In this document: positions 9,533 through 24,777 of the stretch, in pieces
How positions within the stretch are numbered: position 1 is the first letter of the stretch
Layout: each line of letters opens with the position of its first letter
Source: Catajapyx aquilonaris
Taxonomy: Eukaryota
Direction: 5' to 3'
Assembly (NCBI GenBank): GCA_000934665.2
Contig: JYFJ02001992.1
Span: forward strand, 1-64,000
Length of the DNA: 64,000 nt
Notes under the pieces: generated by a model
What the model saw: the letters and a program-made list of their open reading frames with translations, nothing else
Told to the model about the DNA's origin: nothing
The model's database searches: none
Position numbers and translations under genes: made by a program

Positions 9533-9687
9533 TCAAACATCCGTTTCGATGCTCACAGCGTTTATGTTATTATTGTGCCTTGGATTGCAATTTTGTTTGC
9601 TGATGTCATGGGTTAACAGGATCCCCTCTTCAAGTTCCATGATGTCAGATGAAGATTCGGATAAGGAATTCTTCTTGAGTTGCTGAC
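9533..9687 (-). CDS. Sh: Shaker C-terminal exon ending in PDZ-binding motif ETDV
   Basis: Acceptor caaccaacag|GT; reads GQQLKKNSLSESSSDIMELEEG...AVSIETDV with TGA at 9535-9533. The spliced CDS totals 1539 nt (512 aa plus stop). Confidence 0.96.
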
Positions 9688-9821
9688 CTGTTGGTTGTTG
9701 ATTTAGATTCGGCGTCATGATGATAATTGGTATGAAGAGGTGAGGTGTATGTAAAGAAAGAAGAACAAGAGACACTTTAGTTTACGCACAGGAACACATT
9801 GATTTAGACTACATTTAAATA

Positions 9822-10098: not shown

Positions 10099-10289
10099 CT
10101 AAAGTACCGGGCAAGTAAGGGCAGCTGGTAACATGGTTGAAGTTCTGGGACTGCATCTCCTCCTGATCTGTCTCCCTGTGGTAGAAGTAGTTGAAATTGG
10201 ACACAATGACAGGAACTGGAAGCGCTATCGTCAACACGCCAGCGATGGCGCACAGGGAGCCCACGATCTTGCCCCAAACCCCGACAGGT
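10099..10289 (-). CDS. Sh: Shaker S6 exon (PVP gate motif)
   Basis: [64 protein letters not shown]; acceptor catctatag|A, donor TTAG|gtaagt; 191 nt. Confidence 0.98.
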
Positions 10290-12017
10290 CTATAGATGAC
10301 AAACAAGAAAGAAAAGGACACGTTAGTGGAGGATTTCCCAAACTAAGGGCCCGTACTGTCACAAAGATCAGGCAGATCAGGTAATGGTTTGTTAACTATC
10401 ATGACTTTTTCTGAGACTTATGGACGATACCGATAGTCATTTTCATCCAAAAATGTGGCACAAATAACTCCAATGCAATAAACAATTTTTTTTTGAGTCT
10501 AGTGCACATTTCTTCAGTTACCAGATGTACCAGATCTCTGCTTTTTGAATCTAATACGCTGCATATCAAAAATTAACCAGCCAAAACTAAACAAAGTATG
10601 TTTCCAAAAATACTGAAGAGTGAGAAATTGCTAATAATAGGCCTAATATGTGACAATCAAACTTGAAAAGAAAGTAAAAGTGTGGGAAAACTCAGCAAAT
10701 AAGCTGCTCTATAAAATAGGACACTATGGATTCATAGTGACAGTGTGAAGAGCGACTGAGTGAGTCCACGTGCTATCAACAAAATCTACATCAATATAGG
10801 CCATTTTTTAAAAAAAATTTCCAAAGACAGATTTTGACTCTTTGGAAGAAAAGGGGAGTGTCAGATAAAAATAGATGAGAGTATGATACTTTTTCATGTA
10901 AAAACCAAAGTGAATAGTACAATAATGATAATAATAACACCAATAATGAGAATAATAATTCATGCTGGTGCAGAAGCGGCACCTTTTGCACTCTCACTTT
11001 AGAAAACATAACTTCATTATAGTTTTCACGATCTATTCCACTCCTCCAACACCATACTAATGTACCAATAAGTCGACGTGTTTAATATCCACCTGAGCCC
11101 TATTTTTCTCTCAGAGGCCCATATATACAAAATATAAATAGAGAGAATAACATATAAATTGCACACACATGCAAAAACAAATAACGGTGATACATGCAAC
11201 ATTTTGTCCGAGGCGAGCATAGAAGCACACACATAAGCACCTATTGTAGGAAGAAGACAGAGGAGAAGAAGAAGGATACGAGCCAGGAATAGTTGGGATA
11301 AAATGCAGTACAATGCAGTTGGTTGTTTTTTTTTCAGGTTTTGGTACAGTTAAATACAAACACACGTGTACACATGCAAAGAAGCGGACATAACACATAC
11401 AGGGTGGTTTGGTGCAGGAATAGGGAGAAACAAGTGGGGGAAGAGACACGTCGAAAAATTCTTTATATCGCTCGCTCTTCGAATGATTTTGCTGCAATGC
11501 TAAGGAAATATCTCCAAATATTCAATCGACTACCGAGGGTGTGATGACGTGCCTTATGTGACAGGCACGAATTATGTCCTAAATTCTGAATCTCACTGAT
11601 AGTGTATTTATGGTCTTTACGTTTAATGCACCACACTCAAGGCGTTTGACTTCCAAATGGTAGGCTAATTAATTTGAACTTTCAAGCACACAAGACATAA
11701 ATGACAGATTACACCACTTGTTCCAGAAGTAATCCGACATTCGTATAATTTACACTCCTAGCCAATCAGATGCAAGGATGAATTTCACTTTGCGAAACCG
11801 AGAAGTAAAACAAATTGCTGACGTTGACACCACTTGATACGATAGTATAATGTTGTCGACTACATTAATATAAACATCGAATTGATATTGAGAATACCAT
11901 ACACCAGAAGCCTGCTATTTTGATTGGCCAATGTAACCTCTTCTCTTCTCTATTACTACATACAACAGGGTGTTTCTCAAATCAGTCTGGATTTGTTCCG
12001 ATTGGAAACACCATGTA

Positions 12018-12908
12018 CAGGTGTTGGACAGAATAATAGGGCCCCTGCGAAAAGAAGTTGAAACTTTGCATCTGTTGTATTCGAAAACTGGAAAAGTTAC
12101 AAAGATGACCTTTACCTAGTTTTGAAGCTCTGTCGATGTACATTTGTTGAGGTATACAGATGATGCAAAAGTCACGAGAAGGGGGGAGAAAAAAAAGACG
12201 AACGATACCCTCCAGGCTCCATTTTTGACCAGAGTGTCCCACCCTTATAATTTGAAAACGAAAACAGTTACAGATATGAACGTGACTGAATTTTGAAGCT
12301 CTCTCGATGTCACTTTGTGTGGTATACAAATTGATCAGTTTTCACGCCAGGGGGCGGGGGGAAAAATAGAAACGGCATCCCCCTTCCCCGGCACTGTTTT
12401 AATACAAACAATGGAAAATTTTCCTCCCACTGCTAGTTACTGCTAACTTAGCAATACCAGTGCCAAATATGGTACTGATAAAGTGATAAGTTAGTAGCAA
12501 CTAGCAGTGGGAGGAAAATTTGCCATTGTTTGTATTAAAGCAGTGCCGGGGAAGGGGGATGCAGTTTATATTTTTTCCCCACCCTCTCGCGTGAAAACTG
12601 GTCAATCTGTATACCACACAGAGTGACATCGAGAGAGCTTCAAAACTCAGTCAAGTTCATATCTGTAACTGTTTTTGTTTTCAAAAATTAATGAAAAAGG
12701 TGTGACACTCTGGTCAAAAATCGGGCCTGCATTTCTTTCTCCTATTCTCGTGATTTTGGGGTCATCTGGTTACCTCAACAAATGTACATCGACAGAGATT
12801 CAAAACTAGGTAAAAGCCATCTTTGTAACTTTTCCAGTTTTCGAATGAAACAGACGCAAAATTTCAACCCCTTTTCGCAGTGGGTCCCATTATTCTGTCC
12901 AACCCCTG
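12018..12908. mobile_element. Long foldback MITE, TA-flanked (Tc1/mariner-type ends)
   Basis: ta-caggtgttggacagaataat...attattctgtccaacccctg-ta; the arms stay complementary almost to the centre near 12460. Confidence 0.9.
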
Positions 12909-13656
12909 TATATTACAGAGACGAAGAAGAGCGAGCTAAAACAAAACTAAAAGTAAAAGTATAGCGAACTGTTTTAGTTGGCACAGACTTTTAAAGGGAG
13001 ATTTTAATTCTCTTGCATCTGAAAGAGTCGGGGGGAATGTGAGCACCACGCAAAAGTGGATGACAAAAAAAAGGGAAATTGCACATATGTAAGCGCAAAT
13101 GCATTGTGGCAGCTGTACATGCCTACTGGAATTAAATGCAAACAATTAAATCATCAAATCTGAACTAGTTCGAAACTACTCCACCACAATTTCTTTACGC
13201 TAACCAATGCACGCAGGAAAGTTACAGGACAAAATGACATGGAGGTTACACGTAAACTACTGAGAAAAAACGGTCATATTGCAGGATTACACGAGACGCA
13301 CAACACTGAATGATCACCACCGATATAAAGAAGAAAAGAACAGAGGAGAGAAGAGGATGAGTTTTTCCAGTAATAATTTTGATTTTGGCAAATTCGGAAT
13401 GGGGCTTGGGCTATTTTAGAATTTTTTTTACTGTTCTGAACAGTCTGAAGCGAGCAAAGAATTTTCTGATGCGCCTACACAGGTGTAGTCAAGGTTGGGA
13501 CTTATTAGGGTCAAGATGTCATTTGGATGGAATTTGGTGAGTGTTAGGGTACAAAATGGATGGTATAGGGTGTAACCACGCGACTTTTGGCGTGGGTTAG
13601 GGGGGAGGTCAAAAGGGAGGAGAGGTAGACGCATGATCAAAGTGAGTACATCGTAC

Positions 13657-13786
13657 GTCATGTCACCATAGCCCACTGTGGTCATGGTTACAACAGCCCA
13701 CCAGAAGGCATCGGGGATAGACTTGAAGTAAGACTGCTCAGTGCCAGCCTCGGCGAAGTACACAGCACTTGAGAACAGAACCACAC
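13657..13786 (-). CDS. Sh: Shaker alternative pore exon P3 (turret GTEQSYF; filter TVGYGDM-T)
   Basis: Acceptor tgtctttcag|GT and donor ATGAC|gtacga; 130 nt. Reads [42 protein letters not shown], and AC|A gives Thr. Confidence 0.95.
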
Positions 13787-13820
13787 CTGAAAGACAACAC
13801 CCACACAGCCTTTAGATTAC

Positions 13821-13950
13821 CTCATGTCACCATAGCCCACTGTGGTCATGGTTACAACAGCCCACCAGAAGGCATCCGGAATAGACTTGAAGAAAGACTT
13901 GTCAGAGCCAGCTTCGGCGAAGTACACAGCGCTTGAGAAGAGTACAACAC
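13821..13950 (-). CDS. Sh: Shaker alternative pore exon P2 (turret GSDKSFF; filter TVGYGDM-R)
   Basis: Acceptor gctcttgcag|GT and donor ATGAG|gtaatc; 130 nt. Reads [42 protein letters not shown], and AG|A gives Arg. Confidence 0.95.
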
Positions 13951-14003
13951 CTGCAAGAGCATGTCTAGTGATCCACATGGGGAGGCAAAGCAGTTGGGAT
14001 TAC

Positions 14004-14182
14004 CTAATGTCCCCGAATCCGACAGTGGTCATCAAACACAACTAAGGCCCACCAGAACGCGTGCGAGATCGACTGGAAGCACTCTTCCGTCATTTGGCCA
14101 AAACCAACACAGGTTTTGTCTACCACATGGTACTCATTCAAAATGTTGGTCATATATGCACCATTCGATAAGAGCAAAATCC
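14004..14182 (-). pseudogene. Sh: Divergent third pore (S5-P) exon, P1; frameshifted as assembled (pseudo-exon, poison exon or assembly error)
   Basis: Acceptor atgatttctttcag|GG. Reads GILLLSNGAYMTNILNEYHVVDKTCVGFGQMTEECFQSISHAFWWALVV, then a frameshift, then MTTVGFGDI(R)|gtaatc. Length is 179 nt, one base off the required phase. Confidence 0.8.
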
Positions 14183-14721
14183 CTGAAAGAAATCATTGTG
14201 GATGTACAGTACATGCAGACGAGGACAGCTCTGCTTGCAGCTGCTGAAAGCGCAAAAGCAGCAACGGAATCACGGGGCCAAGCTATAGGAAGCGTCTCAT
14301 CTCCGGTACTGTCGACTTTCGATCTTCTAATCTGCTCATAGTCATTAGGAGATGCAAATTTAAACGGTGATAGCTTTTCGACACGCCTATATTGTATGTG
14401 CGAATAAGAAAGCTAAACACGTTCGTGGTCTGAAAGATTTGAGGCAAGTGTCAGATCAAAATGGTCCATAGTGGCCCTAATGTAATGGGTATGTAGGAAT
14501 AACGATGCAAGTGCCTGTTGCACCAGGTTAGATACACTAATGCCCAATTCCGGCGTGCAGCCAATGAGAAGACAGAGTTCCCGTCAGCGCATCGTGTGCG
14601 TGAATGAGCCATAAAATTTTAGCAATTCTCCAAGGTAGGTAATATTTAAAAATTCTTAATGCGAGTAATATTATGTAGCATATTATAAATAATATGATAT
14701 AACCCAATTGCGTACGTTCGC

Positions 14722-14944
14722 AATAAGGTTGTCCATAAAGTACTATGGGGCTCAAATTGTTTTGGCCACTTTATCCTGGTCTTGAAGCAACCCTTCGAAC
14801 AGGCCCCACGTTGAGGAGACCAGGCTAAAGTGTTCAAAACAATTTGAGACCCATAGTACGTCACGCTGCGCTGGTAGGGGACAGGATTGACGTTACAGAC
14901 CGTGACATGGGCGTATGGTCAGTACTTTATGGACGACCTCTTAC
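14722..14944. repeat. Interrupted inverted repeat, probable MITE remnant
   Basis: aggttgtccataaagtactatggggctcaaattgttt pairs with aaacaatttgagacccatagtac (about 14837) and agtactttatggacgacct (about 14921). Confidence 0.6.
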
Positions 14945-15547: not shown

Positions 15548-17570
15548 AGCTTAAGAAAAAATATATCTCCAAGCAACATGATTATATCCATCTGCACAAA
15601 GCCAGAAAGTTAATAACCTCCTGAAATGGGTAAGCGCTGAAAGCTACGGAATAGAGCGTAAGTCCAAAACAGGATGTCACTCAACCCTACAATGTAACCT
15701 TGGAGATAACTTTAAGTACGCTTACTGATGGACATGAAAAATTTAAGAAGCTTCGTTTAATTGTCCGATACAGAGAACATTTTAAGGAAAAGGCATGCAC
15801 TGTAATCATATCAGTATATAACGCAAATAATTTGTCGCTGCCAAGCTCTTCAATTGTTCATGCCCATAGTGTAATGTACTCCACACGCGATAATTATATT
15901 TACAACTCCTAATCACTTATATAGGGACTCGATCAGCACATTAATATTGGCAATATGAAGTAACGATGACAGCATAGTTAGAAATGTATGGTTGCAGCAT
16001 AATAAAATGACAATGATGCTGTTAATATCTGATAAGTTACTTCTAGAGACTTATGACTGGCCGACCTTTCGATAATCAAATTAAACTACCAATCAAATTC
16101 AGTCAACATCAACATCTTTCAAGCAGCAGCAGTTAGCAAGCATCAATCATTTCATTTACTAGTAGTTTACGGCAGTAAGTATCAGATACACATGTACTAT
16201 CCGTATATGCTATTACAAACTGGTTTTAGGCGAACCGCATATTAACCTGCACTTAAACGCCTAAATAATACTGTCAAATGTATGATTTTTTTTTTGCTTC
16301 TAACCTGATAATTACATTTGAAGGGGAACTTGATAGACTTTCATAAAAGCTGATCACAACTTTGTGTAATTTACGGCGTTACAGTTTCCGAGACTCATAA
16401 TCTTTGAAGCTCATAGATTTAAGACTTGTGAGAATTAGTTTCCACAGGCAGAATGGGNAGAATGGGGGGGGGGGGGTCCAATGAAGGCTTTGTAGAAAGA
16501 TGTTGAAAAGCTGCAATTTTTAACAAAAGAATTATATGAAAAAGGATTATATACTGCATGTTAAATTAATATTTCCACTCATAATATGACATCATTTTCG
16601 TGATTACGCAATCCGATTTACATGCCCTTAATTGTTATATGTGTTTCATTTTTATGTAGGGCTTTCATTATCATGCGTCAATGCATTTTACTTATTTAAT
16701 AAGGTCAGCGGAAAGCTGTCATAAGTCACAACATGGTCAATTAAAAGTTAAATGGACTACTCCGGATAATAGTGTTTTCTGTCGTTGTTAAGAGTGGCTT
16801 GAAAAATAATGCTGCACAAACATGTGTGATGGCCCAACCTGCAAAGTCGCCTTGTGATGACTCATCCCATACACCGAAGATACACAGGGTGTTCCACGTT
16901 TAACTCACTTGTATAATAAAGTAAACACTTAATAATAAAGTCGAAAACACACATAAATATTTGTGCGCCCATCCAGATTAATTTGATTCCATTCGTGAAT
17001 TTATACTATTATTACGAGGCTTTATTATGCAAATAGAGTTGAGCGTAGACCTCCTGATACTCTATAACTGACAACAAAATGTAGGTGGTCCAGTATAAAC
17101 TTCCCACAGTGTCATGAGGGACATTCAACTAATCGTGACTTAGATAGCAACATTGTTGTGAGGATATTACTGGCGATGTTACAGGTCTTGGAGAGTTTAT
17201 TATGGACCACATGGCATAACTGCACTATACTTCAAGAGGAAGAGGGCATTATTGCCTACACACGTCTTTCCCAAAACGAAGGAACAAAAAACAGCTATTT
17301 GAAACACCCCCAGACGATGGCAAGCCGAGGCTGGAAGAGGAAATCAACGCCACCAAGTATACGAACCACCAACACAAGAGCATGTATATATGATAAAAAA
17401 AAGCACAAACATCACAAATCACCAAAGGTACACCGGATCCCGCACTACTAGAACCATGATGTGAGAAAAAGTAGAAAAGCGCAAAATTGACGCGCGCATG
17501 ACTTTTGTGAGGACAAAAAAAGAACAAAGAAATATATGGGTTTTCGAAGGTTTTGTCTGCTTGTACTTAC

Positions 17571-18217
17571 CAATGAATAAGAAAAATATGAGCAAGCCTA
17601 ACTCCCTCATGGATGCCTTGAGAGTCCTGCCGAGGATTTGTAGCCCCTTGGAGTGCCTGGAAAGTTTGAATATTCGGAACACTCGCACCAACCGGATCAC
17701 TCGGAGGATGGCCAGGGACATGGCCTGGTTGGAGCTCTTGTCCGTAGGTCCCGCCGGAGCCAGAGGCTTGGTCATCAGCAACTCCTCCTTCTCGGCCACC
17801 ACCGTGCCCAGCGTTATGAAGTAAGGAATGATCGCAATGATATCTATAACGTTCATGACGTTTCTAAAAAAGGCAAACTTGTTTGGACAGGCTAAGAAGC
17901 GCACGATCAACTCGAAGGTGAACCATATGATGCATATGGTTTCGATCAGGAAAAAGGGGTCTGTGATTGAGGGCACTTCATCCTCCTCGATCTTGGTGTG
18001 GTTGGCTAAGGTTCGGTACACTTTGTAGTGCTTGAACTCGGGCAAGGTCTCCAGACAGAAGATGACGATGGACAGGAGGATGACGAAGACCGAGATAATG
18101 GCCACCACCCTGGCGTGTTGAGAGCTCTCCGGGTATTCGAACAGAAGCCATATCTTGCGCTGAAGCTCATGCGACGGCAGCGGCTTCTCCTCTTCCTTGA
18201 TGAAGCCCTCATCTTCC
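17571..18217 (-). CDS. Sh: Shaker S1-S4 voltage sensor and start of S5
   Basis: [14 protein letters not shown]...S4 [22 protein letters not shown]...[13 protein letters not shown]; acceptor gattgcag|G, donor ATTG|gtaagt; 647 nt with phases 2 to 1, consistent with neighbours. Confidence 0.99.
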
Positions 18218-18540
18218 CTGCAATCGGAGTCAACCAAACAACCATCATCAGTACATTTGTCGAGTTTGCACGTTGATTCAAGGAGTAACATACTAGCAGA
18301 AAACAAAGTCATGCACATTTTACGGTAATATTGCTTATATGTTACTTTATGTTATACATCAAGTGACATTAAGAGGAGTGAATAGTCTCCCTGCAAAACG
18401 TGCAACGCAGCACATTAGCTTAGGACAGTAGTACGCCTGGAATCGGCTCAAAATAAATATGATGACATTAATGTTTTTCTATGAAGGTCGTCAGACGCTC
18501 TGATTCTCTAACAGATTCTGCTAGCTAGCTTGTGTAAGTA

Positions 18541-20511: not shown

Positions 20512-20546
20512 TAAGAAAATTAGCTGATTGGTCCTGAGTCCGTTAC

Positions 20547-20812
20547 CTGAACTTGTTGGTGGCCAACTCCCCCAGCTCATAGAACTTGATCTCCTCGGAG
20601 AAGACGTCGAGAGGCACGTTGACCGGGCGCCGTAACCTTCCGCCGCTCTGGTAGTAGTAGAGGATGGCATCAAAACTGGGCCGGTTGCGGTCGAAGAAGT
20701 ACTCGTTCCGGAGCGGGTCGAAGTACCGGATCCTCCGAGCGGGATCGCCCAGAAGGGTGTCCGGGAACTGATTCAGCGTCCGCAACTGGGTTTCGAACCG
20801 GAGACCGCTCAC
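20547..20812 (-). CDS. Sh: Shaker T1/BTB tetramerisation domain exon
   Basis: [24 protein letters not shown]...[17 protein letters not shown]; acceptor ccctgcag|, donor AG|gtaacg; 266 nt. Confidence 0.98.
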
Positions 20813-22036
20813 CTGCAGGGGGAAGAAGAGACATACACATCATCACCATTCCAAATTATAGCCATCAGCAAATTGCTTTTTGACACTTGGATGGCCATCA
20901 GCACGCTTGGATTCCTTCCCGGCCAGTAAAATTAGCCTAAGGGCACCGTCAAAATAGATACTCAGCCTCAGGAAGTCCCCTATTTCCTCCAATTCAAACC
21001 ATATCTCAATATAATAATGGCAGTGATAGATCATTAGCATAGTCACGTCTACTCAAGCCTAATATGTCAAGGGATCTATATAACTTACGTCCCACTTCCT
21101 CTACCCTGCTTTTCACGAATTCGTGAAACCACGTCCGAATCAATCTTTCAAATCAAGTCTCAATTCCGAGGAAATTTGGAGGGGGGTAAATCCCAGAGTT
21201 TCACCCAACCACCCCCTTCGTCTCCTGCATCATGTATCTGCTCCAAAACTGGACATTTTGAGCGCACGGCGCTGATCAATACCTGCACTTTGAGGAGACA
21301 CTCTTATCAAGTACACCAGAAACTAACCATTAGGCTACGGGACTACGTCACGTTTCGCACGGACGCTAATCGAGCTTCCTCAACTATATTTCATGCCGTA
21401 TCAAAGTACAGGACCTGATGTGGGTTCAAAATAATGTGTGTACTAATCATGGGGGAATAGCTGTTTCGACCTGTGCAGTCACGCCCGGTTAGCTCTGGGA
21501 GGTATAGTGGAACAGTAGGATGTCACTAGGAATTCTAGGGGAATAGAATCAACTGATGCGAATCTATGGGAGAGGAGGAGGATCCAGGTGTTCTGTTGCT
21601 GCTTAGTGATTCTATTTCGTCCTGTTCGTCGCATGTCGTTAGTGGGAATTCAGTTAAGGCAAGAGAAGGAGTCTGATGGGGCAGGAAGGTACCTGGATAG
21701 GTCGGTTCCAGTACGCACAAAAATTCACTAACTTACTTTTAACTAGTACGTCATGATCCAAAGTTACATAAAAGTATATGTAATGTGAGTTTGTTTCGGA
21801 ATAAAATCATTAGGACTTGCCAACATTTGTGGTATACGAATCAAGGAGGTAATCATTTCGCTACTCCGGTGTACACCTGCCAGTGGTACTCCCTGGTACT
21901 CCTCAGGTACCTCACTCTTTATTACTCCTTGGTACTCTTTGAATTTGGTACTCCAGTGTACACTTCTCAGTCGAGTGGTTACCCCCTTGATACGAATACT
22001 TCACATTGAATCAGATCATAATGTAAACATTAATAA

Positions 22037-24038: not shown

Positions 24039-24383
24039 TATATTGGTGCGGGTCCAGAAAAGGTTAAAGGAGGTCTCTTTCTGCAGAAGAAACAATGAGC
24101 CTCCACCAAAACATAATAATAGCACTGTCAATTTCTTTTGACTAATGAATACAGCTAAGTAAAGCTTTCACAATCGGACCTCTTTGTAACTCTTAACAAT
24201 ATCAGAAATAAAATCCTGACCTAGGACAACCTTATCTCTACTGGAGAGGTAAGGGTAGCCAAGATGCCATGGCCCAGTTAGGCTGACGTATGATGCGTAG
24301 TTGCTTGGGACATTGACTGGTGTAAATGGACATTTACTGTCTAAATAACCATTAGGTAGTACATAGTACCGGTTGAAACTTAC

Positions 24384-24507
24384 GTTAATGACCACCCTCT
24401 CGCAGAAGTCGTGGTCGTGAGGGATTGGTTCGAAGTGTCCAGAGCCGGTGTATTGTGCTTGGGGGGTCGGGCCCTCCTCGTCCTGGCTGCTCAACTTCGG
24501 GAGCGAC
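24384..24507 (-). CDS. Sh: Shaker first common exon ([12 protein letters not shown]...[12 protein letters not shown])
   Basis: Acceptor tttgttctgacag|G and donor AAC|gtaagt; 124 nt. The peptide matches the segment where Drosophila Shaker alternative N-termini join the constant region. Confidence 0.96.
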
Positions 24508-24777
24508 CTGTCAGAACAAAACATCCCATGTCAGTATGATTACTGCTCTCAACACCATAGGGTCCTTACAACCCCAATAGCACACAATAGATACGTGACA
24601 CTGCCCCTCGGTTCGCAGGCAATCACAATGCATGATGGGTGCGCCCATCTAACTGGTGGGAAAGTCTCTTCCCACCTACACAATGTCACACTACAGTATG
24701 CCAAACCCAATATTGGCCTGAGGTATTGAAAAAATAAAACAGCTTCCAGTTTGGTTTCGGTAAATTGTATAACTCAC

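Follow-up and report, generated by a model that had tools for sequence, protein, structure and literature searches.

Sequence comparisons show that the Shaker (Kv1) gene of Catajapyx aquilonaris holds a genuine, very diverged third copy of its pore exon, in tandem with the other two. This copy, P1, lies upstream of two regular pore exons, P2 and P3, and as assembled it is interrupted by a frameshift between the pore helix and the filter and is unable to encode a pore. We regard it as about an even call that P1 is a tandem exon that is dead or dying; transcripts that took it in now and then would meet a premature stop. Alternative Shaker pore exons of two types are already known, and what is new here is the broken, diverged third copy.

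Layout of the Shaker gene and anatomy of P1

The window, which is the whole stretch of 64,000 nt that was analysed, carries on its minus strand a Shaker-type (Kv1) potassium-channel gene, as identified by tblastn with insect Shaker proteins; all gene features given below are on this strand. The same searches located an N-terminal exon (24512..24366), a T1 exon (20833..20546) and a C-terminal exon (near 9694..9536). An exon running from S1 to the first part of S5 (17571..18243) was delimited from its open reading frame and sequence and ends in LIFFLFI plus G, followed by a phase 1 donor at 17570 (G/gtaagt, the slash marking the splice boundary here and below). The S6 exon (10289..10099) starts A CCT GTC after tctatag and provides a common acceptor for the pore exons. 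The insect Shaker protein P0004 matched the S1–S5 exon at 87% identity over 18243..17569 and the S6 exon at 100% identity across 65 residues (both by tblastn). The top genuine database matches of the S1–S5 exon were insect Shaker proteins at 88% identity, closer species being absent.

The pore-exon cluster consists of P1 (14182..14004; 179 nt), P2 (13950..13821; 130 nt) and P3 (13786..13657; 130 nt), each of which opens in phase 1 after a …cag acceptor. P2 is of the R type and ends in TVGYGDM plus AG, and P3 is of the T type and ends in TVGYGDM plus AC; the donor is AG/gtaatc in both P1 and P2 and AC/gtacga in P3. No fourth copy of the pore exon was found in all 64 kb by tblastn with the P2 and P3 peptides. 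P1 and P2 are separated by an intron of 53 nt (14003..13951) that begins with the same gtaatc as the P2 donor, and P2 and P3 by a spacer of 34 nt (13787..13820). Judged by general minimal intron size, the 34-nt spacer is likely too short for splicing, with steric hindrance the likely basis of a choice of one of the two exons, and the 53-nt spacer would be borderline. Because P2 and P3 are each 130 nt long, or 1 mod 3, two pore exons or none would shift the frame into S6, and exactly one pore exon is presumably chosen per transcript.

P1 was delimited from its sequence, translation and splice sites. Its acceptor, tttctttcag with a pyrimidine tract (14183..14192), is comparable to those of P2, P3 and the S6 exon, and the splice sites read gatttctttcag/GG at the acceptor and TTAG/gtaatc at the donor. 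P1 thus has the phase and the usable acceptor and donor of a mutually exclusive pore exon, and the original prediction of an exon-like unit 53 nt upstream of P2, with a good acceptor, phase 1 and a donor identical to that of P2, was found in the sequence in all its parts.

From the acceptor onwards, P1 can be divided into five segments. Block A, ILLLSNGAYM (14151..14180), aligns to the S5 end of P2 and P3. It is followed by an expanded turret, TNILNEYHVVDKTCVGFGQMTEEC (14079..14150), of 24 residues versus 9 in P2 and P3 and with two Cys, and then, in the same frame as block A, by the pore helix, block B, FQSISHAFWWALVV (14037..14078). Global alignment places an extra TTTG relative to P2 and P3 at 14033..14036, between pore helix and filter, where it causes a frameshift. 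Block C, MTTVGFGDI (14006..14032), therefore lies in the +1 frame and carries a GFG filter, after which P1 ends and the terminal AG gives Arg at position 449. In the assembled frame, the insertion is followed instead by FDDHCRIRGH and a TAG stop (14006..14004) that forms the last codon of the exon. The total of 179 nt is 2 mod 3, where a pore exon needs 1 mod 3. We thus read the turret longer by 15 residues with its two Cys, the frameshift, MTTVGFGDI, the length of 179 nt and the in-frame TAG exactly as they had been described before. The run of T occupies 14036..14034 and not 14033–14035, an offset of one base.

Homology and coding history of the third copy

The homology of P1 to P2, which had been proposed as a point to be settled against shuffled controls, was significant at both the nucleotide and the peptide level. 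The local nucleotide alignment of the two exons scored 31, where shuffled sequences gave a mean of 15.1 and a maximum of 27 (0/2000 reaching the score). The pore-helix peptide scored 54 against a shuffle maximum of 44, and the filter peptide 41 against a maximum of 35, again with no shuffle out of 2000 reaching either value. Aligned with the pore-helix motif of P2 (SIPxAFWWA in Kv1), FQSISHAFWWALV was identical at 9 of 13 residues, a score that none of 2000 shuffles reached. Moreover, a repeat search independently detected a 33-nt family of which 14047–14079 is copy three, with 79% identity to the reference copy in P3. The view that P1 is no exon and resembles its neighbours by chance draws on the shortness of the alignable blocks, but the shuffle controls, which refute it for practical purposes, the repeat family and the codon-position pattern described below all stand against it, and the position, phase, strand and splice sites of P1 fit the exon cluster; we consider this view extremely improbable. 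The divergent 'ADKDC' exon type of Lepidoptera was also considered as a class for P1 and dropped, the scores of P1 against 27 exon variants being about equal (53–61.5); the lepidopteran 'ADKDC…R' exon is the R-type exon of Lepidoptera.

For the analysis of coding history, P1 and P2 were aligned over 33 codons (S5, 10; pore helix, 14; filter, 9). Differences at the first, second and third codon positions numbered 8:5:21 over all 33 codons (chi-square p = 0.0017) and 5:2:14 over pore helix and filter (p = 0.004). By block, three of the 10 residues of block A are the same as in P2 (one codon identical and two with third-position changes only; differences 3:3:7), 9 of the 14 residues of block B are the same, five of its codons differing only at the third position, and the differences in block C are distributed 0:1:6. 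The original prediction had taken third-position-only changes at seven conserved residues of the pore part as a sign of long-term coding constraint; the pattern holds, but the count was too low, as there are in fact nine such residues in the pore part plus two in the S5 part.

The divergence between the two exons is large. At shared four-fold degenerate sites 9 of 11 differ, which is near saturation, and the NG86 estimate of dN was 0.25 while dS was saturated and not computable. As the null for a neutrally evolving P1, we took the one-sided 95% lower bound of the neutral distance (0.92) and assigned half of it to P1, under which at least 34% differences are expected at first and second codon positions. 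The observed differences at these positions were 13/66 over all blocks (p = 0.007), 7/46 in blocks B and C (p = 0.003) and 1/18 in block C alone when read in its canonical frame (p = 0.005). A P1 that was never constrained is therefore rejected, and these codon comparisons support coding constraint on P1 over a long time, as the earlier interpretation of the third-position changes had it (p about 0.003–0.007). The test excludes solely the case of no constraint at any time, and the alignable blocks were noticed for their conservation, which introduces an ascertainment bias. With the conservative bound, neutral evolution could account for as much as about half of the history of P1, so that the description 'recently dead' carries no date. 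Because block C, which lies behind the frameshift, was constrained in the canonical frame, the frameshift appears to be younger than most of the divergence between P1 and P2. There are no stop codons among the 48 codons of the frame of blocks A and B or the 9 codons of block C; these stop-free blocks prove little, since the estimated probability of their surviving by chance at the observed divergence is roughly one in five.

Inside the turret, tblastn identified a degenerate repeat, VVDKTCVGFGQM (14126..14091), that aligns with the last 12 residues of P2 and P3; P1 thus has two GFG motifs, one in the turret and one in the filter block. The score of this repeat, 34, was reached by none of 5000 shuffles of the turret and by 5 of 4983 stop-free 24-residue segments of the window outside the exon cluster. 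At the nucleotide level, the turret alignment extends to the final ATGAC of P3 with 25/39 matches, and 30 of 3000 shuffles scored as high. To us the degenerate filter copy looks like structural scrambling, the 45 extra nt having arisen, it seems, by internal duplication or else being left over from the fusion of two older copies. P1 may accordingly be a relic, either of two older tandem copies fused into one or of an internal 45-nt duplication, which is an origin that could be combined with any of the readings of its present state; both alignments and the peptide-score background speak for it. In the fused form, a shortened copy that closes with the filter-like VGFGQM-T(AC) would make up the 5' part, and the following copy would have supplied its pore helix and filter as the 3' part. 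We treat this origin as a tentative suggestion well short of an even chance, given that the repeat is short, that the two filter-like copies within P1 are not significantly alike in nucleotides (1323 of 3000 shuffles reached their score) and that a fusion needs further deletions of about 115 nt.

Departures from pore-exon norms and the probable fate of P1

P1 was then set against 120 listed homologous proteins comprising 126 homologous pore copies. The spacing from FWW to TVG is 6 residues in 126/126 copies and 7 in the P1 read-through, and the length of the turret spacer, from which P1 also departs, is likewise invariant (126/126). None of the 120 homologues has a GFG filter, a longer turret or an altered spacing, and all 7 amino-acid changes in blocks B and C hit positions where nearly all homologue copies match P2 and P3. 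The Pfam family Ion_trans_2 was matched by P2 with 39.8 bits (E 4.3e-10) and by P3 with 39.6 bits (E 5e-10), whereas the assembled frame of P1 had no Pfam match and its peptide in the frame of blocks A and B had none in either PDB or Pfam on its own; the TVG[YF]G signature is not in frame with the pore helix in the assembled P1. When P1 was read through with X at the break, it reached 19.7 bits, short of the 22.5 required for Ion_trans_2. Among solved structures in the PDB, this read-through aligned best with Kv1.2, Kv1.3 and Shaker (E about 7e-4 to 1e-3) rather than with EAG or Kir channels, each time with a gap of one residue, so that removal of one T would leave an extra residue between pore helix and filter. 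This agrees with the expectation that deleting one T retains an additional residue and that only removal of 4 nt gives the canonical length.

GFG filters occur in EAG/ERG and Kir6 channels and in some K2P pore domains. P1 has the change of Tyr to Phe in G-Y-G in common with these channels, but its AFWWA pore helix is Kv1-like, and the parallel with EAG/ERG and Kir6 in the original prediction finds no support as a sign of ancestry. As the read-through matches Kv1.2, Kv1.3 and Shaker best, its GFG is a Tyr-to-Phe change within a Kv1-type exon. At the corresponding Shaker positions, P1 carries Phe at 445 and Arg at 449, and the Thr of position 439 is lost, with Val or a broken codon in its place. 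According to PMC9539455, position 449 of Shaker is a key determinant of C-type inactivation, Y445F conducts and inactivates faster (C-type), T449K inactivates faster, and T439V is listed as non-conducting (Table 2 therein); PMC2223370 is a further source for the behaviour of Shaker pore mutants.

Searches of protein collections returned nothing resembling P1. Among 5.8 billion clusters, no P1-like protein of longer or similar length shared three 5-residue words with it, phmmer with P1 against 1.84 billion representatives retrieved only two repetitive proteins unrelated to channels, and a metagenome scan with a back-translated P1 pattern had 0 matches. These blanks carry little weight, since clustering may merge isoforms that differ in one exon and the best identity in the collections was 88%, with no close relative.

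The sequence of events that we favour for P1 is as follows. P1 is an old third duplicate, placed upstream of P2 (Arg-449) and P3 (Thr-449), that would have spent much of its past as a spliced exon with translation in the canonical frame. An insertion of 4 nt would then have parted the pore helix from the filter, with the frame now closing at the TAG at the exon end. As its splice sites are intact, P1 may still be included now and then, and such inclusion would yield a message in which translation ends too early, after S5 plus 59 residues, and which would probably be a target of nonsense-mediated decay. We infer that the frameshift, known from the assembly alone, is real rather than an assembly error, that P1 is no longer used productively and that P1-containing transcripts meet this fate. 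The stop-free blocks and intact splice sites are compatible with a live exon too.

The original prediction left three states open, namely a functional isoform, a recently dead exon or a poison exon. What these have in common, a third tandem copy with long coding constraint, stands, while a working isoform is disfavoured by the spacing, the loss of Thr-439, the turret repeat and the blank protein searches. Under that last possibility, the extra bases would stem from faulty assembly or sequencing, or from a null allele carried by the individual that was sequenced, and P1 would code for a Kv1 pore that has GFG, Arg-449 and a long turret with two Cys, picked instead of P2 or P3. The long-term constraint, which includes block C in its canonical frame (0:1:6, p = 0.005), would suit such an exon, as would the intact acceptor and donor, the latter identical to that of P2, and the absence of stops from both coding blocks. 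The 10 single-N positions in the 64 kb indicate that the assembly is a draft, and Y445F Shaker channels conduct (PMC9539455). However, a correction of 1 nt leaves the extra residue between FWW and TVG, where the spacing is invariant in 126/126 copies, and only the removal of 4 nt is canonical; an assembly error of 4 nt in a non-repetitive context was judged unlikely. The lost Thr-439 (T439V being non-conducting according to PMC9539455), the scrambled filter repeat in the turret, the lack of a P1-like peptide in the protein collections searched and the read-through score below the Pfam cut-off all count against a working exon as well, and we consider it unlikely. Rather less probable still is the specific outcome in which an error or private allele conceals a third Shaker isoform expressed in this lineage and different from every recorded Kv1 pore, with GFG, a two-Cys turret containing VGFG, no Thr-439 and Arg-449. 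If this were true, the isoform would be expected from Y445F, T439V and T449K to be strongly C-type inactivated or silent (PMC9539455, as above), and a splice-selected modulatory or dominant-negative pore subunit in Shaker tetramers could result.

P1 could also serve as a regulated poison or truncating exon, whose stop after S5 would lower Shaker current through nonsense-mediated decay, an effect to which a T1-S1–S5 fragment co-assembling with full subunits could add. The in-frame TAG stands precisely at the end of an exon with strong splice sites, and insect annotations predict pore-less truncated isoforms (P0018 and P0072), so that products of an off-switch are at least modelled. There is also a precedent in SCN8A exon 18N, an alternative exon of a channel gene that arose by duplication and contains an in-frame stop; in exons of this kind the stop is conserved along with the exon, and regulated use has been documented. 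P1 resembles it as a tandem duplicate in which an in-frame stop truncates the channel, but differs in that its stop stems from a frameshift that post-dates the coding constraint. Since the third-position bias of block C follows the canonical and not the assembled frame, the stop of P1 appears to be a late by-product of the frameshift and not an old selected feature, and we think a regulated role improbable. Two internal splicing schemes were also considered and rejected: an internal 61-nt mini-intron (gtacca…ttccag) restores the end phase yet puts the constrained block B out of frame, and among the alternative internal donors of P1 the sole one of the right phase removes the filter.

Alternative pore exons are among the few ways in which one Kv1 gene can alter both permeation and inactivation. 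A third copy that was coding for long means that the cluster once had more members than are annotated, and P1 records both gain and loss of exons. Should P1 be intact and expressed, it would be of interest to channel biophysicists as a naturally occurring Kv1 pore that combines GFG with a remodelled turret. In its assembled form, P1 is mainly a matter of annotation, to be kept out of coding gene models, as its inclusion truncates the product.

Alternative pore exons and other features of the locus

TVGYGD is present in 108 of the 120 listed homologues. A pore exon ending in GYGDM-R occurs in 47/120, one ending in GYGDM-T in 72/120, and both in 14/120, and P2 and P3 were assigned to the R and T types by their match to these insect exons. 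Exon types were surveyed in 12 groups of proteins, 11 of which were single genera and one of which comprised four tenebrionid proteins. Both R and T were found in 8/12 groups and a single type in 2/12, and no third type of pore exon was found among the 12. In the predictions that hold both exons (Athalia, Adelges and the tenebrionids), R precedes T. P2 and P3 therefore match the insect pair in type and order, whereas P1 is without a counterpart in the 120 proteins, and from these sequences the two-exon pore cluster looks like a widespread arthropod feature.

Kim et al. (1997) reportedly described alternative exons for the S5 end, turret, pore helix and filter in the Shaker gene of the lobster Panulirus interruptus, the same alternative span in a Kv1 channel as in the present gene. 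Two splice variants of lobster Shaker, one of them sensitive to kappa-conotoxin PVIIA, are reported in PMC2229645; in contrast to these two, the present cluster has a third, upstream copy that stands out by its much greater divergence, its GFG, its turret longer by 15 residues and its frameshift. Full-text literature searches retrieved no paper on a third Shaker pore exon or on the insect R/T pair. A grasshopper Shaker preprint makes no mention of isoforms, splicing, exons or T449, and the available excerpts of a Cancer borealis preprint and of PMC5096308 contain nothing on pore exons.

P2 and P3 are identical at 118/130 nt, with an identical run of 55 nt at the 3' end and a dS of 0.30. As the R/T split extends across insect orders, a dS of only 0.30 suggests gene conversion between P2 and P3 in this lineage. 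Insect Shaker isoforms in which the pore is skipped and the frame shifted are predicted in P0018 and P0072. In these two, and in P0020 and P0005, S5 is joined directly to S6; the predicted products have short tails in a shifted frame, except that of P0005, which stays in frame and lacks the pore. Reading through the AC/gtacga donor of P3, the frame stays open for 76 more codons (13428–13656, minus strand). A GDMTYD continuation beyond the pore exon was found in four insect predictions (P0017, P0019, P0065 and P0084), from which the unusual GTACGA donor seems to be conserved and intron-retained products without S6 to have been modelled elsewhere.

The window contains ten isolated single-N positions (16458, 34090, 35019, 35753, 38707, 41771, 43966, 47960, 55280 and 62309) and no runs of N; these are ambiguous or masked bases and not scaffold gaps. 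The predicted RNA fold of 13640–14260 was unremarkable (z = 0.04), and no inverted repeat was found to connect a pore exon with its introns. Upstream of P1, the intron carries two inverted repeats at 14726–14939, with arms of 43 nt (91% complementary) and 19 nt (95% complementary). The intron between P3 and the S6 exon holds a set of nested long inverted repeats at 12013–12913, whose arms measure 152, 115 and 97 nt and are 86–92% complementary, and this set looks like a foldback or MITE-like element.
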